DNA of 64,000 bases, taken from the NCBI GenBank assembly GCA_963797975.1, contig CAWCRH010000002.1, positions 112,524-176,523 on the forward strand, written 5' to 3'. Position numbers and translations under genes: made by a program. Under the pieces are notes generated by a model that made no database searches, was not told where the DNA came from, and saw nothing but the letters and a program-made list of their open reading frames with translations. Below, one piece after another: positions 9,910 to 24,537 of the stretch (position 1 is its first letter; the number at the start of each line of letters is the position of its first letter). Origin of the DNA: an uncultured Thermoplasmata archaeon (GTDB taxonomy: Archaea; Thermoplasmatota; Thermoplasmata; Lutacidiplasmatales; UBA184).

Positions 9910-10853
9910 GCCCGGTCCAAGAATCGCTCGGTGATCGGTCCGTAAGCGTCCACGCGCCGGTCGCGGAGGAACGGCCAGTGCTGGCGGGTCCGCTCGACCT
10001 GGCGGTGATCGATGTCGACCACGAGCAGCTCCTCGCGCTCCTGGGTTGACTCGGCCACGACTCGGCCGAAGGGGTCGACGACGAACGATCCACCCCAGAA
10101 CTCGATGCCCGCCCCGTCCACGCGGTCACCGAGGACATCGCCGTGCTCGAGCCCTACACGGTTCGCGACCGCGACGTAGACGCCGTTGGCGATCGCATGC
10201 CCGCGTTGGATCGTTCGCCACGCGTCGTGTTGGGCCTCCCCGAACTCCTTCTTCTCTCCGGGATGCCAGCCGATCGCCGTAGGGTAGACGAGAAGTTCGG
10301 CTCCCAAGAGGGCGGTGATCCGTGCGGCTTCAGGGTACCACTGGTCCCAGCAGATCAACGGACCGACGCTCAATCCGCCCAGCGAGAACGTGCGGAAGCC
10401 GAGATCCCCCGGAGCAAAGTAGAACTTCTCGAAGTAGAGGGGGTCGTCGGGGATGTGCATTTTGCGGTAGATCCCTGCAAGGCGGCCATCCGCGTCGATC
10501 GCGGCCACCGAGTTGTGGTAGAGTCCCGGAGCCCGCCGTTCGAAGATCGGGGCAATGACGGCGATGTGCCGCGCGCGTGCCTCGTCCGCGAGCCGGTCGA
10601 CGGTGGGGCCCGGAACTGGTTCGGCCAGGTCGAACAAGGCATGGTCCTCTCGTTGGCAGAAGTACTGAAATCGGAAGAGCTCCGGAAGGACCACGAGATG
10701 GGCCTCCCTCCCAGCCGCTTCACGGATCCGGTCGATGGCCTTCTCGAGGTTCATCTCCGGATCGGCGCTCATGGACATCTGGACGATCGCCACGCGGCTT
10801 CGCGCCCGGCTCGCCATCGAACGGTGTTCGTGAGAGGGGGGATTCCGCGGCAA
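9906..10853 (-). CDS. aguB: N-carbamoylputrescine amidase (nitrilase/CN-hydrolase superfamily)
   Basis: CN-hydrolase Glu-Lys-Cys signature regions (VVLPELF; ICWDQWYPEAAR). Operonic with the agmatine deiminase gene. Alternative start at 10817. Confidence 0.82.
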   Translation of the reverse strand: MPRNPPSHEHRSMASRARSRVAIVQMSMSADPEMNLEKAIDRIREAAGREAHLVVLPELFRFQYFCQREDHALFDLAEPVPGPTVDRLADEARARHIAVIAPIFERRAPGLYHNSVAAIDADGRLAGIYRKMHIPDDPLYFEKFYFAPGDLGFRTFSLGGLSVGPLICWDQWYPEAARITALLGAELLVYPTAIGWHPGEKKEFGEAQHDAWRTIQRGHAIANGVYVAVANRVGLEHGDVLGDRVDGAGIEFWGGSFVVDPFGRVVAESTQEREELLVVDIDHRQVERTRQHWPFLRDRRVDAYGPITERFLDRA

Positions 10854-10944
10854 TTTCGCGCCGGTGCTTCCGAGGGTATGTGAGAGTTAATGCCCTTTCG
10901 GTGACGGGCGCGCGGTGCGGCGGTTGGGCCGCCCTGCTCTGCCC

Positions 10945-11532
10945 TCACAGCGCCGGCTGAACCGCGAGAAACGCAAAGTAGGCGGCGAAGCCCACTATCA
11001 GCGCCGCGGAAATATAGCGGATCCATGGCTCGATAGACGGATAGCGCTGCGTACCCGAGCGGATCAGGAGCGGGAAGAACAACACCCACAGGAGGATCGC
11101 GCCAAACAGGCCGATGAAGAGAGGCGCTCCCCCGACGTAGGCGAATCCGACGCCCGCGGTCAGCCACCAAACGATCTGGAACGGGTTACTCAGACCCGTG
11201 GCTACTCCCTGAGAGTAGGCGGTGGGCCCCGGAGGGGCCGTTGGAGTTCCCTGCGGGTTGGTTCGCAGGACTAGGTACGCGAGCACGATCATGACGACGC
11301 TACCCACCGCGTAGACCGGCCGAATGAACTCAGAGAGGTCCACCGTCGACTGGAAAGTGAAGACCAGGACTCCGAGGATTGCGTCCGCGGTTAGGGCGCC
11401 CAGGCCCGTGTAGACGCCGGCGCGCCACCGGACGGAGGAGCGGGCTGCGATGAGCGCGTTCATCGGCCCGGGAGGAACGACCAGAGAGAACCCAAGCAGC
11501 AGGCCAAAGCCGACCAAGCTGAGTTCGGACAT
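10945..11532 (-). CDS. LysE/RhtB-family amino-acid exporter
   Basis: 195 aa with N-terminal GFSLVVPPGPMNALI motif and about 6 hydrophobic segments. Confidence 0.8.
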   Translation of the reverse strand: MSELSLVGFGLLLGFSLVVPPGPMNALIAARSSVRWRAGVYTGLGALTADAILGVLVFTFQSTVDLSEFIRPVYAVGSVVMIVLAYLVLRTNPQGTPTAPPGPTAYSQGVATGLSNPFQIVWWLTAGVGFAYVGGAPLFIGLFGAILLWVLFFPLLIRSGTQRYPSIEPWIRYISAALIVGFAAYFAFLAVQPAL

Positions 11533-12124
11533 CGTTCTTTCCGGAGGTGAGATCGGCGGTCCGCGGAGAGTCGCGCTCGCCTTGACTACATCGGGCGGAA
11601 CGGTTCAAGGTGATAATGGGAGCGAATTCCCTCTTCAGACGAGCATCGATGGGGGAGGAGATCCGGCGACACCCCCCGGCTGCAGGCCGGGGCGGGAGGT
11701 CTCCGCAAGCAATCCCCTCGGCGCATCTCAGAGGACGGAGCCCCAAGGCTACCGGCTCTTCTTCTTCCGGCCCTTGGAAGCTTTCCGCTTCCCCTTGGCT
11801 GCCTTCTTCGGCATGTGCGCACCATGGTCGTTTCGGGTTATTCCCCCGTCGGTTCGTACTCCCGCGTCCGAAAGCGGCGCTCGGTTGCGCGTTCCCGCTC
11901 CATGGGAGATGGGTTTACACCTCCAACACGCGGGTTTCTTCGTTGGACTCAGTGATTTCAGCGAGTGGGCCTCGCTGAGGGATCATCTCTTCCGATGGGG
12001 AATCGAATCAGGCGCGGACGCGAGTCGCTGAGGAGAGAACGCAGTACGGACCCTCCCCGCCAGGATGCCACAGTGCGGAGGGGTTGACGCAACCCCTTTG
12101 ACCCTCCGCTGACTTTCCTCCCGC

Positions 12125-12259
12125 ATGACCGACAAGTGCGAATACTGTGGAGACTCCTTGGCCGATGACTGGGTGGCCTGCCCGAAGTGCGGTAAGCCGA
12201 AGTACGGTGGGAAGCCACTGGTCGAGATCCAGGCTTCCCAGAAGAAGCCTCCTTCGTAG
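12125..12259 (+). CDS. small zinc-ribbon protein (44 aa; not in the supplied track)
   Basis: Hand translation gives MTDKCEYCGDSLADDWVACPKCGKPKYGGKPLVEIQASQKKPPS. Cx2C-x10-Cx2C knuckles with a Lys-rich tail. Sits upstream of the MFS gene on the same strand. Confidence 0.45.
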   Translation: MTDKCEYCGDSLADDWVACPKCGKPKYGGKPLVEIQASQKKPPS

Positions 12260-12454
12260 GTTTCCTCGCCGAGGGTCTCGTACCGATAGGAGGCTCTCGC
12301 CTGGTGGCGTCGCAGTTACCAGAGCGCGACGCATCGTGCGCATCGGTATAACCCCCGTCCGCTCATCCTCCGAGATCCGCAGCGACGTCACGAGGTGACG
12401 GAGCATCTCCGTCGGCCGGCGACTCGCGCGCCGGGCACGGCCAGGAAGGACACG

Positions 12455-13927
12455 ATGGAGTACAAGTGGAAGGCGTTCTCCGTCACGTCGATCGGCGCCT
12501 TCATGGCGGCCGTCGACGGCACGATCGTTCTTCTCGCCCTGCTGCCCATTGCTCAGAACTTGAACTCGAGCTATGTGACGATCATCTGGGTCGTCTTGGC
12601 CTACCTCCTCGCCACGACCGCGTTGGTCCTCAGCTTCGGGCGGATCTCCGACATCTACGGCCGTAAGCGAATGTACAATGTCGGGTTCGTGGTCTTCACC
12701 ATCGGGTCGGCGCTCTGCGGCATCGCTACCACGGGAGTCATGCTCGTGGGCTTCCGGGCGGTTCAAGGGGTCGGAGCCGCGCTGCTCACCGCGAACTCCT
12801 TCGCGATCCTCTCCGAGGCGTTTCCCCCGGGGGAACGCGGCCGGGCGTTCGGGTCCACGGCGGTCATCTGGGGAGTCGGCTCGGTCCTCGGCATCCTCCT
12901 TGGAGCGACGATCATCGCGTTCACCAGCTGGCGCATCATTTTCCTGATCAACATCCCGATCGGGATCTTCGGAACGCTCTGGGCCTATCGTACTCTGAAG
13001 GAATCCGGCCGAACGGTCTCCGAGGGTGAATCGTTCGACCTACCCGCCGCGATCCTGTTCACCGCCGCCCTCACGTCGCTTCTGGTGGGCATCACATGGG
13101 GCCTCCTCTACACCTGGAACAACCCGGGCACCGTCCTCGGACTCGCGCTCGCTCCGCCGTTGTTCGTGGCCTTCCTCCTCTGGGAACTCTACTATAGCCG
13201 CCAGCCGATCATCGATTTTGCTTTCTTCCGAGATCGAACGTTCACGCTCGCGATATGTGCGGCGATGCTCCAGTCGATCGCGATCTTCAGCGTGAACTTC
13301 CTCGTGGTCTTTTACCTCGAGGGGATCTACGGTCTCTCCATCCTAACTGCCTCTTACCTCATCGTCCCGTATGCGGCCGCGATCGCGAGCGTCGGACCGT
13401 TCGGGGGTATGCTCTCCGACCGGTTCGGGGCCAAGAGGATCGCGACGATCGGGCTCGTGCTCCAGATATGTGCGATGCTCGCGTTAAGTCAGCTTACCAC
13501 GACCACGTCCCTTTGGACGCTTGGGCTCGTGGAAGCCGTCTTCGGCGTGGGAGGCGGCCTGTTCTTCCCCGCGAACACGAGCACGATCATGTCGAGCTCG
13601 CCGCGCGGTCGCTACGGGATCGGTTCGGGCATCATGAACACCTTCCGCAACACGGGAATGGTGCTCAGCTTCGCGGTCAGCCTCATCGCCATCACCTCGA
13701 CGCTGTCGAGCGGGCTTGTCTATCAGCTCTTCATCGGTACCCTGTCGGGCGCTCTCCCGGCCAGCGCCGCCACGGAGTATCTCGCCGGGCAGAGCCTGGC
13801 GTTCCTCATCTCCGCCACTCTCCTCTCGGTTGCCCTGTTGCTCGTGCTGGGTACCCGCTCGCGAGGGCCTCCGCATCCGGCGCCGGCCGTGGAAGGGCGG
13901 CTACCGGTCAGCGGAGAACCAAGCTAG
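12455..13927 (+). CDS. MFS transporter, DHA2 (EmrB/QacA-like, 14-TMS type)
   Basis: MEYKWKAFSVTSIGAFMAAVDGTIV start and motif FGRISDIYGRKR. About 490 aa. Paralog of the gene at 61393..62841. Confidence 0.85.
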   Translation: MEYKWKAFSVTSIGAFMAAVDGTIVLLALLPIAQNLNSSYVTIIWVVLAYLLATTALVLSFGRISDIYGRKRMYNVGFVVFTIGSALCGIATTGVMLVGFRAVQGVGAALLTANSFAILSEAFPPGERGRAFGSTAVIWGVGSVLGILLGATIIAFTSWRIIFLINIPIGIFGTLWAYRTLKESGRTVSEGESFDLPAAILFTAALTSLLVGITWGLLYTWNNPGTVLGLALAPPLFVAFLLWELYYSRQPIIDFAFFRDRTFTLAICAAMLQSIAIFSVNFLVVFYLEGIYGLSILTASYLIVPYAAAIASVGPFGGMLSDRFGAKRIATIGLVLQICAMLALSQLTTTTSLWTLGLVEAVFGVGGGLFFPANTSTIMSSSPRGRYGIGSGIMNTFRNTGMVLSFAVSLIAITSTLSSGLVYQLFIGTLSGALPASAATEYLAGQSLAFLISATLLSVALLLVLGTRSRGPPHPAPAVEGRLPVSGEPS

Positions 13928-16095
13928 CGATTCGCCGTCCCCGGGTTCGTCCGAGGTCCCAGGGTCGGACCTGACGCCGGTGCGGACGAGGTCATCGCTC
14001 CCGTAGCGACGCGTGGCCCGGGAGCCGGACGGGAGAGCGAAACGTGCACCATCGGTAGCTTGGACGGGGGACGTCCGGAGAGGTCACGACCGAAGACCCG
14101 GGCGATGGCGTGGCGCACATCGTAAATGTACATGTTCCCGTACGGGCATGCCTCGACGCAATCGCCGACCCCACAGCACTTCGTGCTGCGGAACTCTCCC
14201 TTCGTTCGGAAGTGGCCGGGCATGTCGACCAGACCGACGGGGCACGATTTCGCACAATCGAGCGTGGTGCAATCCCTGCAAATCGAGCGGTCCTTGACTT
14301 TCAGTTTGAAGAAGCCGATCTTCTGAAACGCTTGGGCGATCGCTCCAGTGTAGCACCATCCCATCGTGACACAGTTGTAGTTCCCCGAGTAGGGGATGGT
14401 AACGAACATCACGTACCAGAGCACCGCGAAGTAGAGCGTGAACAGAAAGACGGTCGGGTCGAGGCCGACCACGGTCACGTTCGTCACGTTGAGCCCATCC
14501 AGGACGGAGTACACGGACGCGACCACGAGGGAGCCCATGACGACCATGATCGTGGTCGAGTAGGTCCACGAGAATCGGCTGCTCAGATACTTCCGAGCGA
14601 GCGGGCTCGACCGGTTGAACGACTTCATTGAGTCGACGGTCGTCCCTTGGTACATCAGAGCGGCCGAGCAGAACGTCGAGCAGATGGCTCGCCGCCCGAA
14701 CAGGGCGGAGGCGGATCCCATGGCGGCGTAGGTCACCAGGATGACGATGAAGACCGCCGGAGCGATCGTGGTGGAACCGATCCCCATGCTCCACCCGAGC
14801 ACCGGAACCTGCGTTCCGGCGGGGGCGTTCGGGAAGAGCCAGGAGTAGTAGATGCTCGGAAAGAAGACCACGAACGCGCCGTAGCATCCCATGAGCAGCC
14901 CCAACCGGACACGGGTCTCGACCGACCGCGTCTCTCGGAACTTGAAGGCGACCAGAGCCCCCATCTCCAGTCCCATCATCACGAGGAACCAAGTGGAGGC
15001 GGTGACCAGCGCGAGGAAGAAGAAGCCGTTGTAGAGAGCGTTCGAGAGGACCGTTAGCGGGTCGCCCGTGAGGCCGAGCGCCGGAATCGCCGAGAGAAAG
15101 GAGGACCCGAAGACCTGGGCGTCCAGGAGCGCCCCCATGAAGATCTCGGCGACGAAGACGCTCGCGAGGAGCGCGAACGCCCAGTTGGCCTTCAGCTGCC
15201 AGACGAACGGATCTCCTCCCTCAAAGCGCTCCCAGCGTAGGACCGCATCGAAGTAGAGAACCATCTCCAAGACCAACGAGAGGGCGAAAAGCGTGGAGTC
15301 CCCGTAGGCGACCCAGAAGAAGAGCCCGGCCATCATGAGCCCGTAGACCGCGACGAGCCGGACGATGTAGCGGGCCAGCGCTGGGTTCAGGTTGCGGTGG
15401 CGATAAATGTACTCGAAGAGGAACACAAAGAGCACGATCATCGTGGCGGAACCCACGTAGACCGCGGTCGCCGACCAGCCCGCCGACGCGAGCGCGGTCG
15501 GGGTCAAGACCATGATCGGCACCTGGAGGGCAAAGATGACCGACAGCGGGCGCGGGAGCTCATGCCGCAGGAGAACGACGGTCAATCCCATCTCCGCGGC
15601 CATCGTGAAGACAAACCACGGCGATTGAACGACGTTCGCGAGAAGACTCGCAAAGCCGTAGCTGCCTTGCGCCATCGCCGAGAGCGATGTTCCGCTGGCC
15701 AGGCTGAAGACCAGCCCCATGAGAAGCTCGCTGACGAGGACGAGCGCGACGACCGCTAGTGCGAAGGGCAGCGTCGGGCGGAAGGGACGGGGAGTAAAGT
15801 CTTCCGGGCTGGTAGCGAGTCGCTCGTTCGCCTCTCGGAGGACCTGGACGAACACCGGCACCACGCTCAGGGACATCAACGCGCTCGCGATCCACAACCC
15901 GCCGACGAGCGAGGTCGGGCCCGGGTTCAGGTAGTAGTAGAGGGCCCCCGCCAGCATGCCCCCCATCATGCCGAGCAGGAACAGGGACGCCGCAGCGCGT
16001 ACTCCCGTGCGCGCGTTGGCCGCCCAGCGCACGAGCACCGCCGTGGCGAGCGCCATCGCGGCCGCCAGCGGGATCAAGTAGAGCTCGTAACTCAC
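13924..16095 (-). CDS. polytopic membrane protein fused to a NapH/CcoG-like membrane polyferredoxin module
   Basis: 723 aa. The N-terminal ~460 aa is hydrophobic with an internal repeat. The C-terminal part has membrane Cys pairs (RRAICSTFCS, NYNCVTMGWCY) and two ferredoxin-like clusters (CRDCTTLDCAKSCP, CCGVGDCVEACP). Confidence 0.8.
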   Translation of the reverse strand: MSYELYLIPLAAAMALATAVLVRWAANARTGVRAAASLFLLGMMGGMLAGALYYYLNPGPTSLVGGLWIASALMSLSVVPVFVQVLREANERLATSPEDFTPRPFRPTLPFALAVVALVLVSELLMGLVFSLASGTSLSAMAQGSYGFASLLANVVQSPWFVFTMAAEMGLTVVLLRHELPRPLSVIFALQVPIMVLTPTALASAGWSATAVYVGSATMIVLFVFLFEYIYRHRNLNPALARYIVRLVAVYGLMMAGLFFWVAYGDSTLFALSLVLEMVLYFDAVLRWERFEGGDPFVWQLKANWAFALLASVFVAEIFMGALLDAQVFGSSFLSAIPALGLTGDPLTVLSNALYNGFFFLALVTASTWFLVMMGLEMGALVAFKFRETRSVETRVRLGLLMGCYGAFVVFFPSIYYSWLFPNAPAGTQVPVLGWSMGIGSTTIAPAVFIVILVTYAAMGSASALFGRRAICSTFCSAALMYQGTTVDSMKSFNRSSPLARKYLSSRFSWTYSTTIMVVMGSLVVASVYSVLDGLNVTNVTVVGLDPTVFLFTLYFAVLWYVMFVTIPYSGNYNCVTMGWCYTGAIAQAFQKIGFFKLKVKDRSICRDCTTLDCAKSCPVGLVDMPGHFRTKGEFRSTKCCGVGDCVEACPYGNMYIYDVRHAIARVFGRDLSGRPPSKLPMVHVSLSRPAPGPRVATGAMTSSAPASGPTLGPRTNPGTANR

Positions 16096-17484
16096 GGTCC
16101 CTCCGTTTCGACCACGCGGATGCGGGAGTCGGAGGGTCGCGCTCCTGGAACGGCCACGGCTCGTGCCGGGGCGTTCCTGGGTCCATGAGAGCCACCCAGC
16201 TCCGGCGCAATGGGAGGCCGGTCGAGCCCCTCCCGGTCAGGAGCCGTCCGTCCCCCAGTCCCATTCTCGGCCCAGAGGCGGCGGCCTGCGCTGACGGCCG
16301 AGGCGGTCGGGTCGATCCGGTTTAGGGTGACCTTTGGCCAGAGCGCGAGAGCCAACACGAACACCCCGAGCATGGCAAAGCCAAGCGCGAATCGAAGAAC
16401 GAGTGCGACCGGGCCGGAGAAGGGGGGGGCCACCGCTCCCCAGGATGCTGGTGCCCCGGCCACCCCGAGGATTTCGTTGACGAGTCCCGCGGTCTGGGGG
16501 CTCGCCCACAGGGGCGGTACCCACGTCAGGAGGAGTAGGCTAGTGAACAGGAGGCCCCCCCGCAACGCCTTCGTCGACCGGCGAGGAGCCTGCGGTGCTA
16601 GCACATCCAAAAGTGCGCTTGGGAACAACGCGATTGCGATGACGAGCCCGGCGACCGCCTGATGCTCGAAAAGGAACCCAAACCACGCCGCGGGCGTCGT
16701 GAAGGCCCCCGGAAGCGGAAAAGAGAGCGGCGAATGCCTCGAGCGACCACAGCGCGGCCGCCGCGATGAGCACGCCGCGGGCCACGGCCGCAACAAGGTC
16801 CTGGCCACGGAGCGGGGGCGAGTCCGAGGTACCCGATGGCCCATGGTAGGGGACGCCCGAGAGCCCCAGCATGGGTCCGTAGGCGACTAAGATCGCCTCC
16901 TGAGCGAGAAGAGCGACGAAGACCACCAGCATCTGGAACACTCCCAGGTACCAGTTGTTCGCGAGCAGGGTGTCGACACTCGTCCCGGTCGTCTGGGCGA
17001 CCACCCCGAGGCCGGCTGCGCTTGCGGCGGTGGTCGTGCAGCACGCTCCCATGGTCACGAGGGCGAGCAGCGCTGGCGTGAGTCCGGCGATCGACCCCGC
17101 GGCGAGGGGGCGGCCGGCGGCGCGTCGAAGAGCGATCAGCCGGGCGGCGATGACCGCGGCCACCGACATGCCGATGCCGACCCCGATGGAGACGACGATC
17201 ATCGAGACCGTGGGGAAGAACGGGAGCGCGAGGCTTCCCCCCGGGAAGACCACGAGCAGGGCCGGGTAGTTCCACCATGGGTTTCCGGCCGTGATGAACC
17301 AGACCGTGAGGGAACTGGCCCCCGTCCGCGCAAAGACCAACATCCCGCCGAGAAGCATGGAGGCGAAGGCATAGGTGCCCGCGATCAGGAAGAAGAGGGC
17401 GATGACCCACGGGCGTCGGAACGCGGAGCGCGTAGCGCGCGCCGACAGCACAGCGCCGGCCGTCGTTCCGGCGGGAGGACCCAT
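16092..17484 (-). pseudogene. polytopic membrane protein, reading frame broken near 16706-16710 (frameshift or assembly indel)
   Basis: ORF 16540..17484 is protein-like only down to about 16715. ORF 16092..16844 is protein-like only below about 16715. Each turns Arg-rich beyond that junction. A C5 run sits at the junction. Contains the motif MGACCTTTAASAAGLG. Confidence 0.65.
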
Positions 17485-17510
17485 TGGGTGCTGACGACCG
17501 GGTCTTCCGC

Positions 17511-17515
17511 TATAT
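17511..17515 (-). promoter_or_regulatory. TATA-like box (GCATATAGC on minus strand)
   Basis: Isolated TATAT 27-31 nt upstream of ATG 17484. Confidence 0.4.
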
Positions 17516-17587
17516 GCTAGGCGTCCTTACCTCTTCAGCCGGTAGTAGCTTGGGGCGACCTTGCCGGGCGGCCGCACGGTAGCGCCC

Positions 17588-18577
17588 TCATCCGTTGGGT
17601 TCCACCCCAGGTGTCGGGACCTCAGGTCGGTCCGTCGTCAATGCCGCGCGGCCAGCCGATCCGAGCGGGGCGGAGACCGGGCTCCCGGGGCCGTCGACCG
17701 ATCCCGCCCGTCGAAGCAGCATCCGGAGCAAGAAGACGAGTTCGGCGGTCATGATGGCGACATTCGCAACCGCGAACGGGGGCAACCCCCAAGAGGGAGG
17801 CAGAAGGAGGTAGGAAAGTGCCCACGCGGACGACATCACGAAGAAGGCGAGGACGACAGCCATTCGGAGGCGGATGGACGAGTGGGCGAGGTGAGGCGAT
17901 TGGAGGCCGCGCCAAAGGATGGCGATGGCCAGCGTCATCACGACAGCCATCGCGCACGCTCCGACCAAGGGAACTTCGAACGCCCAGGGCGCGACAAAGG
18001 CGCTCAGCGTGAGCGTGTAGAGGGCTCGTCGGTCGCTAGGCCCGAGTGCGGACCAGCGCACCAGAACGAGCATGGAGACCCCCATCGGCCAGTAGTACCA
18101 CGCCGTGCTCGAAGCGACCAGCAAGGCCTGGCCCGCCGATGCAAGCGTGGACAGGTCGGTCGGCAGCGAACCGGTGACCAAGGCAGCGAACGCCCAGCTC
18201 ATCAACAACTCATTGACGAGAAGCAGTAGGGCGAGGCCCACGGGCCAGGCAGCATTGTTCGCTCGGACGGGGCGTTCGCCCTCTTCGAAGACGAGCGAAA
18301 CAAACCAGAGCCCCACCGGGACCATCATGAACTGGACCGCGAGAGAGAAGATCACAAACCCGTCCACGGTCGGGACCTCGAGGTAGTAGGCGACCCCTCC
18401 CCAGAAGACGGCCTGGGAGACGAGGACGGCGGTTCCGAGGACGAATGTGGAGAAGGCTGGGACGCTGTGCCCGGCGAGGAGGCGGTAGATGATGTACAGG
18501 TTGAGGGCGATCATTCCGACCGCCACGGCGGCAAAGGGGACCGTGGCGCTCGTGATCTCAGCGAGTCCCGCGAACAC
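17588..18577 (-). CDS. polytopic membrane protein, paralog of the N-terminal module of the 723-aa protein
   Basis: 329 aa with GTG start. Shares LVNELLMSW..TGSLPTDLSTLASAG..AWYYWPMGVSMLVLVRW with the corresponding segment of the 13924..16095 product. Confidence 0.7.
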   Translation of the reverse strand: MFAGLAEITSATVPFAAVAVGMIALNLYIIYRLLAGHSVPAFSTFVLGTAVLVSQAVFWGGVAYYLEVPTVDGFVIFSLAVQFMMVPVGLWFVSLVFEEGERPVRANNAAWPVGLALLLLVNELLMSWAFAALVTGSLPTDLSTLASAGQALLVASSTAWYYWPMGVSMLVLVRWSALGPSDRRALYTLTLSAFVAPWAFEVPLVGACAMAVVMTLAIAILWRGLQSPHLAHSSIRLRMAVVLAFFVMSSAWALSYLLLPPSWGLPPFAVANVAIMTAELVFLLRMLLRRAGSVDGPGSPVSAPLGSAGRAALTTDRPEVPTPGVEPNG

Positions 18578-18738
18578 GGGAGCACCTCCCCGTGGCAGGG
18601 TTCCTCACTGCATGCAGGGTCCAGCGTCCGAGCAGGGGAGCCTCCTCCACGGAAAGAGGCGAGGCGTGTCGCGCTATATCGCCCCGAGGTAAGTACGCCC
18701 CCGGGTCGTGGGGAGCACCCGCGGAAAGAGCCGCGCCG

Positions 18739-18909
18739 TCATCCACCGGAAGCCGGGGCCGCTCCGGCTCCTAACGACGCGACGGCCCGAATGAGCGACA
18801 GAGCCTCGTCGCGATCGTCGCAGACGAACACGGAGCCGAGCTCGACACGCACTTGGTTACGCCCGTATTTTCTGAGCTCCCCGCGGACCGACTCGAGTTT
18901 GATGGACAT
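18739..18909 (-). CDS. possible small protein (56 aa; not in the supplied track)
   Basis: Hand translation gives MSIKLESVRGELRKYGRNQVRVELGSVFVCDDRDEALSLIRAVASLGAGAAPASGG. The composition is protein-like, unlike the surrounding Arg-rich shadow frames. No family recognised. Confidence 0.3.
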   Translation of the reverse strand: MSIKLESVRGELRKYGRNQVRVELGSVFVCDDRDEALSLIRAVASLGAGAAPASGG

Positions 18910-18986
18910 CGAGGGGACTCAAGCCGGTAGAGGGATAGGAGGTTTAGGGTCCCATCCCGGGTAGGGCACGTGGCCGAGCGTCTCTC

Positions 18987-19877
18987 TTAGGTCACGCGAT
19001 CGAGGAAGCGCCGAATTCGTGCGATGTAGGCGGCTCTTTCCTCCCAGAACGGCAGGTGGGCGCTCTTTTCGAACGTTGCGAGCTCAGCTCCGGGGATTCC
19101 GTCCGCGATTTGACGGGCGACGGCCGGACTGACTTCATCGTACCGCCCGCCCGTGACGAGGGTTGGCACCCGGATGCGAGAAAGCTGTCCGGAAACGTCC
19201 CAGTCGCGGATCGTGCCGACGATCGTGAACTCGTTGGGCCCGTTCATGTGACCGTACACCGGCACGCTGATCTGGTCGAAGCTATAGCGGACGGGCTCGG
19301 GCCACTCCGTAAGCCGGCAGAGGTGCCGATGGTAGAACGTCTCGACCGCGGCGAGGTACTCGGGCGAGCCGTACTCTCGCTTCGCGTTCCCCGCCCGAAT
19401 CGCGTCCCGGTCCTTGGATGGCAGCTGGCCGATCCATCGGTCGAGCTCGCGATTCGTCAGCGGAACGCTCGCGATCCCTCCCGCGGTCACCAGGCTCTGA
19501 ACGTTCTGAGGGTGGGCGAGTGCATAGGCAATGGCGAGCAGACCGCCGTAGCTCGACCCAAAAAGATGGACGCGTCCCAGGTCGAGGTTCCTCCGAACCT
19601 CCTCGACCTCCTGAACGTTGTGCTCTACCGTGAAGAGCGACGTGTCGGTCACGCGTTCCGAACGGCCGCATCCGAGCTGGTCCATGAACGCCACTCGGTA
19701 GCCCTGCCGCGTCAGGTCGGAGAGCGGCTGGAGGTAGTCGTGGGTCGCGCCGGGCCCTCCATGAAGGCAGAGCACGGTGGGCCGTTCGGTGGGGTCGCCG
19801 CAGATGCGGTAGTAGATCGGGAATCCAGTAGCAGTCGTTCGCCCTTCGACCATCGGCTCGGGCCAGCCGGACGTCAT
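18987..19877 (-). CDS. pip: proline iminopeptidase (alpha/beta hydrolase; tricorn-interacting factor F1-like)
   Basis: LHGGPGATHDY and the nucleophile elbow GSSYGG. 296 aa. Confidence 0.85.
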   Translation of the reverse strand: MTSGWPEPMVEGRTTATGFPIYYRICGDPTERPTVLCLHGGPGATHDYLQPLSDLTRQGYRVAFMDQLGCGRSERVTDTSLFTVEHNVQEVEEVRRNLDLGRVHLFGSSYGGLLAIAYALAHPQNVQSLVTAGGIASVPLTNRELDRWIGQLPSKDRDAIRAGNAKREYGSPEYLAAVETFYHRHLCRLTEWPEPVRYSFDQISVPVYGHMNGPNEFTIVGTIRDWDVSGQLSRIRVPTLVTGGRYDEVSPAVARQIADGIPGAELATFEKSAHLPFWEERAAYIARIRRFLDRVT

Positions 19878-19900
19878 GCTTGCTCCGACCTCCGCGGCCG

Positions 19901-19907
19901 CTATACG
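19901..19907 (-). promoter_or_regulatory. TATA-like box (GCGTATAGCG on minus strand)
   Basis: Isolated TATA about 27 nt upstream of ATG 19877. Confidence 0.4.
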
Positions 19908-20078
19908 CTTGCCGATGACCGCCGCGTCGGTGGGCCTGACACCCCCCGGCGCAATCGGTTCCGTGACACACTTCGGTCGGGCGATCGCCCAGTCAGCACG
20001 TCCCCTTCGATCAGCCGTTCCAACTCGTCAGGATGAGCCCGGCCCGCGAGAGAGCACGTCCCGTTCTGAGAGAGAGGT

Positions 20079-20846
20079 TCACCGAAGAGCCGGGGGGAGG
20101 AGGTAGCGGGATTCGACCTCCGTCCAGGAGGTGGCCCGAGGTGTACTCGCGGGTTCCGTCCGACGTTTCCTGCGATAGGTCAAGGGACTTTCGCGGTCGA
20201 CCCCCACGTAGAGGACAAACTGCGCCCCGGAACGCTCGGCTCCAAGACGATCGACGGGCATGTCTCCGACGAAGAGCACTCGGGGAGCAGGAACCCCCAG
20301 GCTACGGAAGCATCGGCGAAACAGAGCCGGGTCGGGCTTCGCGCTTCCGAATTCGCTCGAGAGGACGATCGCGTCAAAGAAGTCGAGCAGCCCCTCCGTC
20401 CTCAACCGAGCCCGAATCCCTCCAGGGCTCTCGTCGCATATGTTGGAGACCATCCCGACCGCAAGGCCCCGCGATCGAACGTGCTCGAGGAAGGGGCGGA
20501 TGCCCGGTGTGAGGTGGAGGTGGGCGTGCGCGAGGGCACGGTCGAGCCGTTGGGTCAAAAGGTTGGCGTCGACGCGCGCCCCCACCCAGCGACCTACCCA
20601 TCGCGCCTGGTCGTCGAGCGTCGAGGCTCGACCCACCTCCTCGATTCGGTTAAGCTTCCCTCGAAGGCGGTCGAGGGCCCTCCGAGCGGGGCCAGCCGCG
20701 ACTTTAGCGTCGGCGAGAGTGCGCATCCAGGCCCGCCGTTTCGCCCTATGGTACTCGAGGCGTTCATTGGCCCGATGGTACCACGTGGTGTACCAAAGAT
20801 CGAGCGCCACCGCGTCGATGGGGCCAAAGGTTGGGGGTTCCGCCAT
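20079..20846 (-). CDS. HAD-superfamily hydrolase (haloacid-dehalogenase-like subfamily)
   Basis: Motif I-like VALDLWYT (D-x-aromatic-x-T as in the DAYGT type), motif III/IV SAKPD..VGDMPVD. ATG 20846 chosen inside ORF 20079..20885. Confidence 0.72.
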   Translation of the reverse strand: MAEPPTFGPIDAVALDLWYTTWYHRANERLEYHRAKRRAWMRTLADAKVAAGPARRALDRLRGKLNRIEEVGRASTLDDQARWVGRWVGARVDANLLTQRLDRALAHAHLHLTPGIRPFLEHVRSRGLAVGMVSNICDESPGGIRARLRTEGLLDFFDAIVLSSEFGSAKPDPALFRRCFRSLGVPAPRVLFVGDMPVDRLGAERSGAQFVLYVGVDRESPLTYRRKRRTEPASTPRATSWTEVESRYLLPPALR

Positions 20847-21118
20847 GCAACCCTCAGAAGGCGGCGCGGTCTTGCTCGATGACAATCCCTCGGAGCCCGA
20901 GGGTATCCGCCTCGGTGGCGGTCGATGCGTCGTTGTTCCATGGAACGGTCATGGTGCGCGTCGGGCCAAGAGCTGGGCCAGCGCGTCAGGGCCAGAGCGT
21001 GCCGAGGGGAAATCCCTTCGCCCGGGCCCGAGCCACCCATCCGACCCCCACTCCTCCTCCGGGTCCCGAGAGGCGTAACATCGAAATCCGTGCGCCGTGA
21101 TGCGGCCCTGGATAAGCG

Positions 21119-22183
21119 ATGGTCGAGCCAGAGCTTCGATTCGACACCACCCTGCTCAACGGCTTCCGGTTTTCTTGCCGTCCGGACTGTGGGCTCTGTT
21201 GTTACACCACCCCGGCGGTCACGGCTTCCGAACTCAACCGTCTACGAGCCGTACGGCCCGGGCTCCCGCTGGTCACCACCTCCGACGGTCGCACGGCCAT
21301 CGCGGGTCATCCGAACGGCGGCGCCTGTCGGATGCTGACGGGGCGCCGTTGCTCGGTCTACGCGGTGCGACCGGGTCCGTGTACTACCTTCCCGGTCAGC
21401 GTCCACGGAGGTTCGGAGCGCTGGCAGGCATCCTTGGTGCTCTCGTGCCCCGGACTAACGTTGGACATCCTCGCGGGATGGACGGTCGGAGCCCAGACGT
21501 CACCGTGCCAAGGGCTCGAAAACGAAATCGAAGCAGCCCAACAGCGGAGCCGTCTGCCCTATGCGACCCGAGGTCGGGCGAACGACTGGATCCACCGTCG
21601 GCGCGCGGAGCGCTTGGCGCGCCGCCAGGACCCGCAAGGAAGCGCGGAGAAGGTCCGCGAAGCGCTTCGCCGAGAGACGCTTCAGGTCTGGCCGCAAGAC
21701 CTGCCGGGAGAGATCCCGCCGGCGGTCGAAGACGGGGTAGACTACCTGCCCCTGGTCTGGGAGGGGCCGGACCGGGTTGTCGGTATCGAAGGCGACCCGC
21801 TGGGCTTCCGCTTCGTGGATCTGGACCCTTCGGGCGCCCGTGAAGAACCTTCGGAGGTTTTTCCCCTCCCCCGCACCATCCTCTCATTGACCCCCGAAGC
21901 ACGCTCGCTGCTGGACGGATACCTCCGCTACTGGGTCGAGCGAGACGCGCTGTTCGACTACGTGCTCACGGACATGGTAGCCGACCAGCCCTCCGTGCAG
22001 CTCATCGACCGCATCCGCCGTGAGCTGAGCTTCATCGGGGCGACCGTCATCGCGCGGGCGGCCGTCCGTGCCCGGCGCCGAGGCGAGTTCGAAAGAAGGT
22101 TGAGCTTCGAGGCCATGGTTCTCGGCGTGCAGGCAACGGACATGGACCTGCTCGACCGCCCGAGCCTCGGGGTTCGGCTCTAG
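21119..22183 (+). CDS. YkgJ/UPF0153-type cysteine-cluster protein, extended form
   Basis: FSCRPDCGLCC and GACRMLTGRRCSVYAVRPGPCTTFP match the putative Zn/Fe-chelating CxxCxxCC domain. A C-terminal extension of about 230 aa is unassigned. Confidence 0.68.
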   Translation: MVEPELRFDTTLLNGFRFSCRPDCGLCCYTTPAVTASELNRLRAVRPGLPLVTTSDGRTAIAGHPNGGACRMLTGRRCSVYAVRPGPCTTFPVSVHGGSERWQASLVLSCPGLTLDILAGWTVGAQTSPCQGLENEIEAAQQRSRLPYATRGRANDWIHRRRAERLARRQDPQGSAEKVREALRRETLQVWPQDLPGEIPPAVEDGVDYLPLVWEGPDRVVGIEGDPLGFRFVDLDPSGAREEPSEVFPLPRTILSLTPEARSLLDGYLRYWVERDALFDYVLTDMVADQPSVQLIDRIRRELSFIGATVIARAAVRARRRGEFERRLSFEAMVLGVQATDMDLLDRPSLGVRL

Positions 22184-23250
22184 CGCGGCGACGGGAACTT
22201 GCGGCCGAGCGTGTTGGAGAGCTCATGGACGAGCGCGTTCTCTCGCTGCCGATTCCATGGGGTCGGGGAGAGCGTGAACGGAGCATCCCAGCTCATCGGT
22301 GCCGATTGGTCGAGTTGCCGTAGGAACTCACTTCGCCACTCGGCGGGGGTCTCTGCACCCGGGGAGGGAAACGCCGGCTCGCCGGCGAGCAGACGGCCCG
22401 TCTTCGCGAGGGTGAGCGCGACGTTGACCGGGTCATAGCCGCCTCCTCCCGTCACGACGAGGCGTCCCTGGGAGAGCTCGGAGGAGAGCTGGAGGAGCCG
22501 CGAAACGACGGCCGCGTAGCCGTGCGACGTGAACTGGAGCTGGGCGAGCGGGTCGCCGGCATGCCCGTCCACACCGTGCTGAAGGATGATCAGCCCGGGC
22601 CGGAACTCTTCCAGGAGGGGTGGGACGATCCTCTCGAAGAGCGGTACCAACGCCTCGTCGCCCGCCCAGGGAGGCAGGGGAAGATTGACCTTCAGCCCGG
22701 ATCCGTCGCCTCCCCCGTGCTCGCTCACGCTCCCCGTGCCGGGAAATAGAGTGCGCCCATCCTGGTGGAAGTCGATGTCGAGAACCTGACCAGAATCGTA
22801 GAATCCGTACATGACCCCGTCACCGTGGTGGGCATCGATGTCGATGTAGGCGACCTTGCCGATGCGGTCCATCGCGCTACGGACCCCGACCGCCACGTCG
22901 TTGTAGATGCAGAACCCGCTCGCACGGTCCGGGTGCGCGTGGTGGAGGCCCCCGAACGGGTGGAACGATGGACCTCGGCGCTCGATCGCCGAGTCCACCG
23001 CATCGACGGTCCCCCCGACGACACGAGCGGCCGCCTCGTCGCATCCCGGGAAGGATGGGGTGTCTCCCGCGTCGAGCCAGAGGCGCCGACCGTGGTGTCC
23101 GGATCGCTCGACGCTCTGCACGTACGCCTCCGTGTGGAATGTTCCGAGCGTCTCCGCGGAGGCCGGGTTGACGGAACGTTGCCAGTCCACCGTTTCAGGG
23201 GCCGGGAGGGAAGCTTCGAACAGCCGTGTCCCGAGCTCGCGGAACGCCAT
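22180..23250 (-). CDS. histone deacetylase-family amidohydrolase (AcuC / acetylpolyamine amidohydrolase-like)
   Basis: GGLHHAHPDRASGFCIYND and metal/charge-relay motif DIDAHHGDG. Confidence 0.85.
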   Translation of the reverse strand: MAFRELGTRLFEASLPAPETVDWQRSVNPASAETLGTFHTEAYVQSVERSGHHGRRLWLDAGDTPSFPGCDEAAARVVGGTVDAVDSAIERRGPSFHPFGGLHHAHPDRASGFCIYNDVAVGVRSAMDRIGKVAYIDIDAHHGDGVMYGFYDSGQVLDIDFHQDGRTLFPGTGSVSEHGGGDGSGLKVNLPLPPWAGDEALVPLFERIVPPLLEEFRPGLIILQHGVDGHAGDPLAQLQFTSHGYAAVVSRLLQLSSELSQGRLVVTGGGGYDPVNVALTLAKTGRLLAGEPAFPSPGAETPAEWRSEFLRQLDQSAPMSWDAPFTLSPTPWNRQRENALVHELSNTLGRKFPSPR

Positions 23251-23568
23251 CGCGAACGGGTGTCCTGGCCCGAAGTCGGTACTCTCGTAGACGAGGGTCC
23301 CAGACCGTGAGCAGCTTCGACATTCCTAACGTACCGTCCCCTTACTGTGAGGACGGGAGACGACCCACCGGTGTCGCCGCTCCCGGTGAAGAAAATAGGG
23401 AGGGCAGTGAGGCCTATGGCGGTTCCGCATTCGATCGCAGCGGAGGTCCACCGCGAGATAAGAGGTCCGCCGGGAGCATTCCCCCGCCTCCGACGCTTCG
23501 GGGCGTAGCCCGAAGTGGACTCCCGAGCACCCTGCAGAGACGCTGAACGACGCCGCCGTCGAGCCGGT

Positions 23569-24537
23569 TCACGCCCCGCGCTGGCCCCAGGGGAGGGACC
23601 GTTCCAAGATCCGGCGGGTCGAGCGGAGCGTGACCTCGGTCACGGCGCTGACGCGCGCGATCTGGGCGTGGGAGTGGCGCTCTCCATGCTGGTCGGAGGC
23701 GACAGAGATCATCGCAGCGACCAGACCGTGCGGGCTCAGTCCGGAGAGCTCAGGATTGCGCTGGACCTCAGCGAGCATCTCCTCGACGGTCGATCGGACC
23801 GGGGAGCTGAGCGCGAGCTCCTCCGCGTAGCGGGCCAAGAACCCTCGCATGCCCACGGAAGGGACGCGGATGTCGGCCCCCCGCTGGACGACCTTGAAGG
23901 CACGGCCCACGTCGGTTCGAGAGGAGTTGACCGCGGCAGCGACTTCGGTGAGCGTTCGGGGTACGGAGAAAATGCGGCAGGCCGCGTAGACGGCGGCCCC
24001 TACACACGACTCGAGCGTCCGTCCCCGAGAGAGGCCACGGCTCTTCGCCTCCTGGAAGATCCGCTCCGCTTCCGCCACCACGACGGGGGGTAGGCGGAGT
24101 TGTTCACCGGCGACCGCGATCTCGCCTCGGGCCGGGGTGTGTCGCGGGCCTCCCACGCTCGCACGGCTCGTCTGGCGTTGCATCACGCGTTTCAGGTGCT
24201 GGAATTCGTAGCGTCGCCGGTAGTCGAGCCGTCGGCCCTGGCCGTCCCGGCTCAACGTGAGGGTCGATCCGAGCGAGCTCCTCGCGCGCGTAGCGGTCGA
24301 GAACGGACCGATCCCGCGGCCGCTCCCCTCGGAGGTCTGCGGATCCTCGGCCATGGGGGGGGAGGCGACCAGTTCTCCGCTCTCAAAGACCAGGCCGCAG
24401 TCGGCGCAGTGAACTTCGGATCGGATGGAGTCAACGATGCGGTGGGAGCTGTGACACATCGGGCAAGCCGATGAGGCAGCGCCGCCCCCTCCGTTCGCGC
24501 CCGTTCGGTCGTCCGGCACGAGGAGGGAAAACCGCAC
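23569..24537 (-). CDS. tfb: transcription initiation factor IIB (TFB)
   Basis: N-terminal zinc ribbon CPMCHSS..VHCADCG followed by two cyclin-fold repeats. Start uncertain: GTG 24537, GTG 24519 or ATG 24459. Confidence 0.9.
   Translation of the reverse strand: MRFSLLVPDDRTGANGGGGAASSACPMCHSSHRIVDSIRSEVHCADCGLVFESGELVASPPMAEDPQTSEGSGRGIGPFSTATRARSSLGSTLTLSRDGQGRRLDYRRRYEFQHLKRVMQRQTSRASVGGPRHTPARGEIAVAGEQLRLPPVVVAEAERIFQEAKSRGLSRGRTLESCVGAAVYAACRIFSVPRTLTEVAAAVNSSRTDVGRAFKVVQRGADIRVPSVGMRGFLARYAEELALSSPVRSTVEEMLAEVQRNPELSGLSPHGLVAAMISVASDQHGERHSHAQIARVSAVTEVTLRSTRRILERSLPWGQRGA

Follow-up and report, generated by a model that had tools for sequence, protein, structure and literature searches.

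A three-gene membrane cluster with a fused polyferredoxin in a Thermoplasmata archaeon: a possible system for copper reduction and translocation

To our knowledge, the delivery of copper to the terminal oxidases and blue-copper carriers of archaea is essentially unknown. MerT/MerF-type carriers and the methionine Cu(I) pathways of CusA, CTR1 and CcoA use cysteine pairs and methionine clusters to handle soft metal ions. The sole archaeal Cu(II) reductase described is a CopZ variant of Archaeoglobus (PMC7558416). In bacteria, CcoG (FixG/RdxA) is the cupric reductase for cbb3 oxidase assembly (PMC7558416, PMC8267372), and CtiP of Corynebacterium glutamicum consists of a CopD-like region fused to a Caa3_CtaG domain, the role of which in CuB insertion is only tentative (PMC9145763). 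DUF1404 has no known function. The best-known member of the NapH-type fold class is a quinol dehydrogenase.

Here we describe three consecutive minus-strand genes, A, B and C, in the window, which is the whole stretch of 64,000 nucleotides that was analysed. The host is a soil Thermoplasmata archaeon. The order to which it belongs generally possesses an A1 haem-copper oxidase and blue-copper carriers (PMC9287336) and therefore needs copper delivery. The genomes TMEG-bg1 and UBA184 are bd-only. A sequence-only reading of the window had proposed that A, B and C form an undescribed membrane redox or transport module that handles ions, metals or cofactors. The core of this proposal holds, whereas the paralogy of B, the extent of the similarity of A and the account of the NapH-like part of C required correction. 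The three proteins were not all assigned to a characterised family, and their synteny was found to be conserved.

C resembles CcoG in that it is membrane-anchored, has ferredoxin-type cysteine motifs facing the cytoplasm and falls into the NapH fold class. Further, relatives of C, like CcoG, are encoded next to haem-copper oxidase genes (L165, L169 and L172), although this is not so in the clade of the window. In contrast to CcoG, C matches neither the CcoG-specific profile nor Fer4_18 nor the FixG_C Ig-like domain, carries approximately 460 extra N-terminal residues (modules N1 and N2, approximately 12 helices), has only three conserved cysteines in its second ferredoxin motif, and is found in archaea with A-type oxidases rather than cbb3. 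The CcoG-specific model, FixG_C, CopD, MerT and HMA were all absent from the Pfam and NCBIfam families listed for A, B and C (for NCBIfam, the best 25 of 36 families matched by the proteins of the window). Thus, the link to CcoG rests on the wider NapH-type fold class. B and N1 resemble MerT/MerF, CusA, CTR1 and CcoA in motif only, through the membrane cysteine pair of B and the MMxxM-type methionine clusters in the helices of N1, whereas A, B and C have no sequence or fold relationship to these proteins.

Gene organisation and the conserved cysteine pair of B

Open reading frames for all three genes were found on the minus strand as had been reported. Gene A (17588-18577) encodes 329 aa with approximately 8-9 hydrophobic helices, and gene C (13924-16095) encodes 723 aa. 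Gene B (16092-17484) encodes approximately 464 aa on read-through and is split into two ORFs in different frames (16540-17484 and 16092-16844). The strong hydrophobicity ascribed to the three proteins was evident from their GRAVY values (0.67-0.90). The stop codon of gene B overlaps the GTG start codon of gene C by 4 nt. An AT-rich CATATAG element (17507-17522, minus strand), located approximately 26-32 nt upstream of the ATG of gene B, may represent an archaeal TATA box for a leaderless B-C transcript. No tRNA was found between 9 and 25 kb of the window.

Gene B had been interpreted as a single gene interrupted by a frame break, and comparison with intact homologues of 462-464 aa bore this out, revealing a single extra base. 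The two ORFs were joined by tblastn with the intact proteins P0133 and P0132, which placed the switch of frame between ...ALFSASGG and TTPAAWFGF, and DNA alignment with L004 and L006 likewise showed one extra base in the window copy. The insertion lies in or near TCCGGGGGCCTTCACG (16698-16713, minus strand), which includes a run of five G, and both halves of B are still conserved.

B is predicted to consist of one N-terminal helix, a small outside domain of four strands and then approximately seven helices (AF2 model, pLDDT 76). Its 73 homologues are 420-460 aa long, and none is named. The only two cysteines of B (residues 148-149 of the window protein; codons at 17038-17043, minus strand) form an invariant mid-helix pair, within the motif MGACCTTT to which the sequence-only reading had drawn attention. 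GACC is invariant across 37 homologues (G147, C149 and C150 in the numbering of P0132), and E197 is also invariant. A second partner family of approximately 270 aa, not detectably related to B, likewise has an invariant cysteine pair inside a membrane helix.

The three genes had been described as mutually paralogous. They are not, because B is related to neither A nor C (hhalign E = 0.16 and 0.24). Further, B had no match in a sequence-profile search of the PDB and no Pfam or NCBIfam family at E ≤ 1, MerT/MerF/MerC included, and comparison of its C-terminal half with the CtaG-like domain by hhalign gave E = 0.15. Homology of B to the short GASCC family, the SCQCE family or DUF1404/CtaG was considered and rejected as not significant (E = 0.15-0.5). 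When the AF2 models of C and B were compared with the PDB using Foldseek, the best E values were 0.36 and 2.7, and neither protein therefore has a fold relative in the PDB.

Modules N1 and N2 and the iron-sulfur domain of C

On the minus strand, gene C comprises module N1 (15220-16095; aa 1-292, approximately nine helices), module N2 (14716-15219; aa 293-460), which is a partial repeat of a hairpin of N1, a NapH/MauN-like membrane polyferredoxin (14086-14715; aa 461-670) with three helices and a ferredoxin domain, and a Pro/Ser/Ala-rich C-terminal tail with the stop codon (13924-14085; aa 671-723). The tail varies in the alignment, is poorly conserved and has a pLDDT of less than 40, and the N1 region was modelled by AF2 with a pLDDT of mostly 85-97. 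The sequence-only reading had stated that the three proteins match no transporter or respiratory family that could be named. This was correct for A, B and the first 460 residues of C, for which scans of Pfam and NCBIfam and searches of the PDB returned no family, but not for the last third of C, which matches Fer4_7 and, remotely, NapH/MauN; a PDB profile search with C matched only the ferredoxin stretch. Structure and profile searches (AF2 models with Foldseek, hhalign and profile scans) placed N1, N2 and B in no characterised family. When 27 diverse N1 proteins were scanned singly, there was no family match, and Pfam CopD (PF05425) matched none of them at E ≤ 1. N1 is a large, highly conserved membrane family without a fold relative in the PDB, and it occurs stand-alone and in other fusions besides the C type.

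Gene A is a stand-alone paralogue of N1, here called the A2 type, with 11 close homologues detected in a word-index search. The proposed paralogy of A and C is real at the profile level (hhalign probability 94%, E = 1e-7), although BLASTP gave only E = 0.13. The match is limited to the first ~290 residues of C and does not extend over the N-terminal ~460 residues, as had been claimed. Further, an A-type first module is present inside the full-length fusion proteins P0288, P0295 and P0300. A retains NELLM (aa 122-126) and WYYWPMGVSM (aa 160-169) and has a serine at the position of the second membrane glutamate of C.

The invariant or nearly invariant residues of N1 are M14, M43, M44, M47, M74, E123, M126, W160, M165, E168, M169, M195, P199, M219, M254, M255, E277 and M278, and the same set of methionine, glutamate and tryptophan residues is conserved across 62 diverse N1 modules. 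A second, internal copy of the module in C had been reported and was recovered by hhalign (residues 297-384 against 103-175; probability 81%, E = 1e-5); the HMM of N1 also matches the N2 regions of several homologues. N2 conserves E317, M320, M373, M374, E377 and M378, together with an invariant outside loop, LGWSMGIG (aa 433-440). The acidic residues that had been seen within hydrophobic helices proved to be invariant across 48 homologues (E123, E168, E277, E317 and E377). Across 15 diverse C-type proteins, 27 positions within the first 460 residues are invariant; 11 of these are methionine (background 4.8%, binomial p = 2e-8), three are glutamate, and none is histidine or cysteine.

The polyferredoxin of C has 11 cysteines that are invariant across 15 diverse homologues, and its membrane-proximal motifs are C472xxxC476 and C575x5C581. 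C472xxxC476 is invariant, and the trailing proline is found only in distant homologues (Fer4_5, 15-21 bits; cut-off 22). The 4Fe-4S dicluster domain (14137-14280, minus strand; aa 606-653) was recognised by Fer4_7 with 28.5 bits against a Pfam cut-off of 27. Its cysteines are spaced Cx2Cx4Cx3CP, then (C)Cx4Cx3CP; as Cx2Cx4Cx3CP and Cx5Cx3CP, the motifs keep seven cysteines family-wide, compared with eight in the canonical two CxxCxxCxxxCP.

The best profile match of C is to NapH/MauN (TIGR02163, PRK09477), with which it shares membrane helices and a dicluster domain over approximately 75% of the model, and distant members of the C family have the canonical CxxxCP of the Fer4_5 type. NCBIfam NapH matched aa 462-652 with E = 5.7e-6 and 25.6 bits against a curated cut-off of 234, and distant homologues of C matched TIGR02163 with E = 2e-10 and 29-40 bits against a cut-off of 213. 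Unlike NapH/MauN, which is defined by cut-offs of 213-234 bits, C and its relatives score 25-40 bits, the clade of the window has CxxxC-S/T-A, the second membrane-proximal motif is Cx5C, C is fused to N1 and N2, and NapG, NapA and NapB are not encoded nearby. As judged from these profiles, the C-terminal domain of C is a remote relative of the NapH/MauN superfamily, below the family cut-off.

Gene neighbourhoods in Thermoplasmata and in other lineages

The three-gene neighbourhood, the conservation of which had been proposed as a test, proved to be conserved in Thermoplasmata. Of 85 loci, 60 have B immediately upstream of C, with a median gap of 26 nt (in the window, the 4-nt overlap). The pair is kept at protein identities of 52-80%, and A-like genes turn up repeatedly to one side of it or the other. 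A stand-alone N1-like gene was found at 39 of the 85 loci, A2-type genes flank B-C at 21, and no other gene family occurs at more than 15. Genes for cytochrome oxidase (cox), cupredoxins or DUF1404 proteins were not found within 10 kb, either in the window or in the 85 loci of its clade, and neither napG/napA/napB nor mau genes were found in the window neighbourhood or the 85 related loci. The adjacent MFS transporters were considered as CcoA-like copper importers and rejected, as they belong to different subfamilies and none has the paired MxxxM/HxxxM motif.

In a one-genome-per-species GTDB collection, 302 stretches encode relatives of C. Thermoplasmata or Thermoplasmatota is the label of each of the best 80 (one 'bacterium'), many of which carry isolate names that suggest soil or peat surveys.

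Fusions of N1 to a DUF1404/Caa3_CtaG-like domain, with the histidine motifs of the latter retained, are found in other archaea. DUF1404 scored above the Pfam cut-off in P0239, P0241 and P0249, and Caa3_CtaG in P0240 and P0241; in contrast, neither profile matched A, B or C. These fusions occur in Conexivisphaerales and some Thermoplasmatota, with N1 N-terminal to the histidine-motif domain. Compared with CtiP and the Bacillus Caa3_CtaG, N1 takes the place of the copper-transport region of CtiP, and in one lineage the fusion gene follows COX1. N1 has no similarity to CopD, however, and the proteins of the window, unlike CtiP, lack a CtaG-like domain.

Genes containing N1 adjoin copper or oxidase genes in six separate lineages. 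In the L118 group, COX1 is followed by a gene of 71 aa and then by an N1-CtaG fusion. In the cultured Picrophilus oshimae (L165), a C-type gene (protein WP_011178100) lies 3.5 kb from COX1-SoxE-COX2-UbiA, and in L169 it is divergent to a COX2-COX1-plastocyanin-like-UbiA operon, 222 nt away. L172 has COX1 on one side, then C, a short CC protein, DUF1404, TatC, TatA, a cupredoxin-like gene and SoxE. A cupredoxin-like gene, an N1-CtaG fusion, a short CC protein and DUF1404 are grouped in L168, and in L114 a DUF1404 gene is divergent from C. The neighbours of C-type genes in these lineages include genes for COX1/COX2, blue-copper proteins, haem O synthase, Tat components and DUF1404. COX1 identity among these loci is only 30-42%. 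CC-motif partners are missing from the vicinity of many C-type genes. In L171, an A2-type fusion adjoins a DtxR-like repressor and a ZnuA-type ABC uptake operon.

Copper handling and alternative readings

The domain make-up, conservation, synteny, fusions and neighbourhoods are observed, whereas we infer which metal is handled, which way it is moved, what donates the electrons and how proteins A, B and C make contact. Because relatives of these proteins adjoin cytochrome oxidase genes, we read A, B and C as a candidate copper reduction and translocation system for the maturation of cuproproteins, and perhaps for copper tolerance too, with a probability of approximately 0.45. The module was linked more specifically to copper and the biogenesis of haem-copper oxidases because of the domain fusions and gene neighbourhoods in other lineages.

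C would be the core of such a system. Its cytoplasmic NapH/CcoG-like iron-sulfur domain, with two ferredoxin-type clusters and the CxxxC and Cx5C motifs at the membrane surface, would take electrons from a cytoplasmic donor. The fused 12-helix N1 and N2 would form a membrane path lined by approximately 15 invariant methionines as Cu(I) ligands, and the five buried glutamates may serve to bind Cu(II) or to carry protons. Reduction of Cu(II) would take place at the domain interface of C, the resulting Cu(I) would travel along the methionine path, and the mid-membrane cysteine pair of B would accept Cu(I) or hand it on. A, an extra copy of N1 minus one glutamate, might join C, either as an accessory subunit or as an alternative one. 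The copper would finally be used in haem-copper oxidase and blue-copper proteins.

The adjacency to cox genes fits a respiratory as well as an assembly role. C might be a NapH-like quinol dehydrogenase or a ferredoxin:quinone oxidoreductase in a respiratory or ion-translocating module that feeds or adjoins the terminal oxidase, in which N1 and N2 bind quinone, the buried glutamates move protons or sodium, and A and B are accessory. The best profiles of the C-terminal domain are those of NapH/MauN quinol dehydrogenase subunits, five invariant mid-helix glutamates are typical of ion-coupling sites, the neighbouring cox genes are structural ones, and the Oxyplasma genome paper places such a gene under aerobic respiration (PMC11349054). 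We nevertheless consider this role unlikely, as N1 also stands alone or is fused to an assembly-factor-like domain without a redox domain, N1 and N2 have no conserved histidine or cysteine for electron transfer across the membrane by haem or iron-sulfur clusters, and no partner of the NapG/NapA type or other redox enzyme is conserved beside C. Further, the extreme methionine enrichment is foreign to the quinone sites and proton channels known to us. The cysteine pair of B, on the other hand, could be the substrate of the iron-sulfur domain of C, which would reduce it like a ferredoxin:thioredoxin reductase or a heterodisulfide reductase. B, functionally analogous to CcdA/DsbD-TlpA, would then pass reducing power outward and might thereby keep, for instance, the cysteines of the CuA site or of cupredoxins reduced. 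Such a relay would suit a B protein whose only cysteines are this invariant pair, the same pair in an unrelated partner family, the translational coupling of B and C, and the oxidase, cupredoxin and Tat neighbourhoods, which fit a maturation role. However, a disulfide between adjacent (vicinal) cysteines is strained, and such pairs are more familiar as ligands of soft metals, as in carriers of the MerT/MerF type. Further, the relay would leave the methionine-rich N1 and N2, the reductase-less N1-CtaG fusions and the many C-type loci without a CC-motif partner unexplained; we regard it as distinctly improbable.

A membrane-helix cysteine pair also recalls mercury carriers, and the module might detoxify or take up another soft or transition metal (Hg, Ag, Cd, Fe or Mn), apart from oxidase assembly. 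Metals are mobile in the acidic soils and peat that the hosts inhabit (PMC9287336), and the DtxR-like repressor and ZnuA-type operon of L171 would suit this role. We give it little credence, since no MerA/MerR, P-type ATPase or metallochaperone is conserved nearby in the window neighbourhood or the 85 loci, Pfam MerT, MerC and HMA do not match, and the recurrent neighbours in other lineages are copper enzymes and assembly genes. The weak BLASTP match of A to C and the unrelatedness of B might even suggest chance co-location of functionally unlinked genes, with the A-C similarity arising from membrane-helix composition. In contrast, true homology is evident from the profile comparison and from those fusion proteins whose first module is of the A type, and the persistence of the B-C pair in 60 of 85 loci at 52-80% identity, with A-like genes on either side, makes coincidence hardly credible.

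Returning to copper, we tentatively suggest, with rather more doubt than for the cluster itself, that aerobic Thermoplasmatota and Conexivisphaerales possess a copper line of their own for loading haem-copper oxidases and blue-copper proteins. It would comprise an N1/N2 methionine-ladder permease, a fused iron-sulfur cupric reductase, cysteine-pair relays and DUF1404/CtaG-like insertases, would replace the Sco, Cox11, CcoA and CcoI routes of bacteria and mitochondria, and would have A-B-C as its reductase-permease core. If the copper role is true, the cluster represents a new design of membrane cupric reductase-permease and a new Cu(I)-conducting fold. With N1/N2, B and the short cysteine-pair family, the cluster establishes three uncharacterised families of membrane proteins, which are tied to oxidase biogenesis by fusion and gene neighbourhood. 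Cultured carriers are Picrophilus and probably Oxyplasma, in the genome description of which a 'polyferredoxin NapH superfamily' gene appears alongside cupredoxin and oxidase subunits (PMC11349054).

Organisation of genes A, B and C

Three minus-strand genes, A (17588-18577, 329 aa), B (16092-17484) and C (13924-16095, 723 aa), encode strongly hydrophobic proteins (GRAVY 0.90, 0.75 and 0.67, respectively). A and C are single ORFs, whereas B is split between two frames, with ORFs of 314 and 250 aa. The end of A and the start of B are separated by 103 nt, and the stop codon of B and the GTG start of C overlap by four bases. The G+C content of the window is 64-69% throughout, and its proteins match uncultured Thermoplasmata genomes, among them Candidatus Lutacidiplasmatales. 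The flanking genes (an MFS transporter convergent with C, LysE, CN-hydrolase, alpha/beta hydrolase, a CxxCxxCC protein, a histone-deacetylase-like protein and TFB) are kept in close relatives only and point to no function.

Unbroken homologues of B span 420-464 aa. When the homologous protein P0133 was compared with the window using tblastn, residues 1-262 matched in one frame and residues 256-464 in the next, with the junction between ...ALFSASGG and TTPAAWFGF. Alignment with the DNA of two relatives revealed one extra base in B of the window, inside TCCGGGGGCCTTCACG at 16698-16713. Both halves of B are well conserved and further stops are absent. Thus, in the one assembly examined, the frame break is either a mutation of very recent origin or an assembly error at the G run.

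The AT-rich sequences CATATAG (17507-17522, minus strand), upstream of B, and GATATAG (18670-18685, minus strand), upstream of A, stand in DNA of otherwise ~65% G+C and may be TATA boxes. A small minus-strand ORF (MSIKLESVRGELRKYG...) runs from 18909 downward, upstream of A, at a position matching that of called genes of 56 and 82 aa in the relatives' loci L004 and L006. Numerous long ORFs overlap at 10000-24000, in other frames and on the complementary strand; we take these to be a by-product of high G+C and not genes.

Domain architecture and conserved residues

The sequence-only reading described A, B and C as mutually paralogous. B is, however, unrelated to A and C (hhalign E = 0.16 and 0.24), which ruled it out as a paralogue of either. 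BLASTP detected no significant similarity between A and C (E = 0.13), whereas hhalign aligned residues 10-204 of A with residues 2-206 of C (probability 94%, E = 1e-7). The first 460 residues of C, used as the query of an exhaustive profile search, returned at least 150 cluster representatives, and local domain mapping of these delimited the first ~290 residues of C as one module, N1. This module occurs alone in many proteins of 300-320 aa, with N2 and a polyferredoxin in proteins of 650-730 aa (C type), and fused to a different C-terminal domain in proteins of 560-590 aa. In the full-length fusions P0288, P0295 and P0300, the family-A profile fits the first module better than the family-C profile does. 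On these alignments, A is therefore a stand-alone N1 paralogue along its entire length; its proposed homology to C stands, but extends over N1 (~290 aa) and not the first ~460 residues. The second internal copy proposed within C was also recovered: the hairpin at residues 103-175 is repeated at 297-384 (hhalign probability 81%, E = 1e-5), where the N1 HMM also matches in several homologues.

Family matches were confined to the last third of C. Fer4_7 was found at residues 606-653, above the Pfam cut-off, and NapH matched weakly across residues 462-652 (E = 5.7e-6). The NapH/MauN model covered more distant family members over about three quarters of its length (E = 2e-10), far under the family cut-off. 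By sequence, therefore, C is a remote relative of NapH-type membrane polyferredoxins and not a NapH. Eleven cysteines are invariant in 15 diverse C homologues (CxxxC, Cx5C, Cx2Cx4Cx3CP and Cx5Cx3CP).

The AlphaFold2 models are confident in their membrane parts (pLDDT mostly 85-97 across residues 1-400 of C; mean 76 for B). Foldseek detected no relative of either model in the PDB (best E = 0.36 for C and 2.7 for B). Judged from helix predictions and from where Arg and Lys fall, C would have ~15 helices, an outside N-terminus and a cytoplasmic Fe-S domain, and the only two cysteines of B, an invariant GACC pair, would lie midway along its third helix.

Residues E123, E168, E277, E317 and E377 are invariant in 48 C homologues, together with many Met and Trp. 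Among the first 460 positions of 15 diverse C-type proteins, 27 are invariant; 11 of these are Met (background 4.8%; p = 2e-8) and three are Glu, with no His or Cys. Further, 62 diverse N1 modules retain M43, M44, M47, M74, E123, M126, W160, M165, E168, M169, M195, P199, M219, M254 and M278. This signature is still recognisable in Picrophilus, and most of it is present in family A, in which Ser replaces E168.

Distribution and gene order

When one genome of each GTDB species was scanned, 302 stretches with C relatives were found. The best 80 of the 302 came from Thermoplasmata or Thermoplasmatota, with one record titled 'bacterium', and several isolate names among these 80 suggest soil or peat surveys. 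In 60 of 85 non-redundant loci, C was immediately preceded by B in the same orientation, with a median gap of 26 nt. Stand-alone N1-like genes were immediately upstream in 18 loci and present at any position in 39 (21 A-type and 17 C-type copies); some preceded B, and others separated B from C or followed C, on either strand. None of the remaining gene families reached more than 15 loci. Thus, the conserved core is B, C and a spare N1, and the A-B-C order of the window is one of several arrangements.

The earlier observation was largely right once B is removed as a paralogue, A is restricted to N1 and the C-terminal third of C is recognised as a remote NapH-type polyferredoxin. Its interpretation as an undescribed membrane redox or transport module has withstood every refutation proposed for it: synteny is conserved, and scans of Pfam and NCBIfam (including 27 diverse N1 proteins scanned singly) and sequence searches of the PDB returned no match for A, B, N1 or N2.

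B is absent from lower-G+C lineages, in which a ~270-aa membrane family with an invariant in-helix GASCC often adjoins C or N1. No homology between this family and B was detected (E = 0.5), and its likeness to B is therefore at the motif level only. It has no Pfam match, and at least 18 loci without B have a copy next to a C-type or N1 gene (e.g., L141:8901-9737, L172:3939-4760 and L168:11746-12579).

MFS genes recurrently adjoin N1-containing genes (window 12395-13927, plus strand; L004, L006, L008, L118, L087, L165 and L166). Because their subfamilies differ and none has the CcoA-like MxxxM/HxxxM pair, this recurrence is probably coincidence.

Links to copper and a proposed role

In the 560-590-aa architecture, N1 is fused to a DUF1404/Caa3_CtaG-like domain, exceeding the Pfam cut-off for DUF1404 in three proteins and for Caa3_CtaG in two. 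The N1-CtaG fusions keep the invariant NPxFHMLxH and H...H motifs, and one N1 fusion in Conexivisphaerales genomes carries the annotation 'DUF1404 family protein'. Caa3_CtaG acts in oxidase assembly, with a tentative link to CuB insertion, and Corynebacterium CtiP joins it to a CopD-like copper-transport region (PMC9145763), which holds a position analogous to that of N1.

Further, copper or oxidase genes adjoin N1-containing genes in six separate lineages. The L118 group has COX1, a 71-aa gene and an N1-CtaG fusion. In Picrophilus oshimae, the distance between the C-type gene WP_011178100 and COX1-SoxE-COX2-UbiA is 3.5 kb. At L169, C is divergent from COX2-COX1-plastocyanin-like-UbiA, 222 nt apart. 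L172 has COX1 on one side, followed by C, a short CC protein, DUF1404, TatC, TatA, a cupredoxin-like gene and SoxE. L168 has a cupredoxin-like gene, an N1-CtaG fusion, a short CC protein and DUF1404, and at L114 a DUF1404 gene is divergent from C. The COX1 proteins of these loci are only 30-42% identical. Against a copper role, neither the window nor its own clade (85 loci) has cox, cupredoxin or DUF1404 genes within 10 kb, and no CcoG-specific, CopD, MerT or HMA model was among the Pfam and NCBIfam matches listed for A, B or C (the best 25 of 36 NCBIfam families).

The NapH-type fold class, to which the C-terminal part of C is remotely related, includes CcoG. This cupric reductase carries two [4Fe-4S] clusters and contributes both to the assembly of cbb3 oxidase and to copper tolerance (PMC7558416, PMC8267372). 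Genes for an A1 haem-copper oxidase and blue-copper proteins are found in most Lutacidiplasmatales (PMC9287336), and the published description of the Oxyplasma genome names a 'polyferredoxin NapH superfamily' gene in one series with those for cupredoxin and oxidase subunits (PMC11349054).

The N1-DUF1404/CtaG fusions, the neighbourhoods in six lineages, the CcoG fold class and the copper enzymes of the hosts point to copper. We tentatively propose, with a probability of roughly 0.45, that A-B-C reduces Cu(II), moves Cu(I) and hands it on. The cytoplasmic Fe-S domain of C would take electrons from a cytoplasmic donor, and Cu(II) on the buried glutamates of N1 and N2 would be reduced near the membrane-proximal Cys motifs. 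Methionines might conduct the Cu(I) as far as an exchange with the Cys pair of B; the exchange partners in other lineages would be short CC and DUF1404/CtaG-like proteins, for insertion of the copper into oxidase or cupredoxins. A may be an accessory N1 that pairs with C. The adjacency of cox genes would also fit a NapH-like respiratory or ion-coupled oxidoreductase, which we consider unlikely, and an Fe-S-driven relay of thiol reductant through B is slightly less probable again. Handling of another metal is improbable and, with B so often adjoining C, co-location by chance is extremely so. With the copper proposal, a system that is uncharacterised and widespread in aerobic Thermoplasmatota now has a specific, testable hypothesis.

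Several neighbours of N1-containing genes were also recorded. In the L118 group (L118:6903-9494; also L090, L095 and L098), COX1 is 863 aa, of which the COX1 model matches residues 25-450 only, followed by a long C-terminal extension; the 71-aa ORF is a membrane ORF. At L171:263-4036, the A2-type N1 polyferredoxin fusion P0295 has as neighbours a DtxR-like repressor and a metal uptake operon of the ZnuA/ABC-3 type. Immediately upstream of B, two loci that lack A (L001:6207-6596 and L003:1545-1937) encode a membrane protein of ~129 aa whose C-terminus is SHOCT-like. A ~490-aa membrane family with an in-helix LSCQCE(G/S) motif is encoded divergently from the C-type gene in Picrophilus oshimae (L165:8416-9909, minus strand) and within the COX2-COX1-UbiA operon of L169 (4439-5905, minus strand). 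The two proteins are 36% identical, and the C-terminal ~110 aa of the family are weakly CtaG-like (hhalign E = 3e-4).
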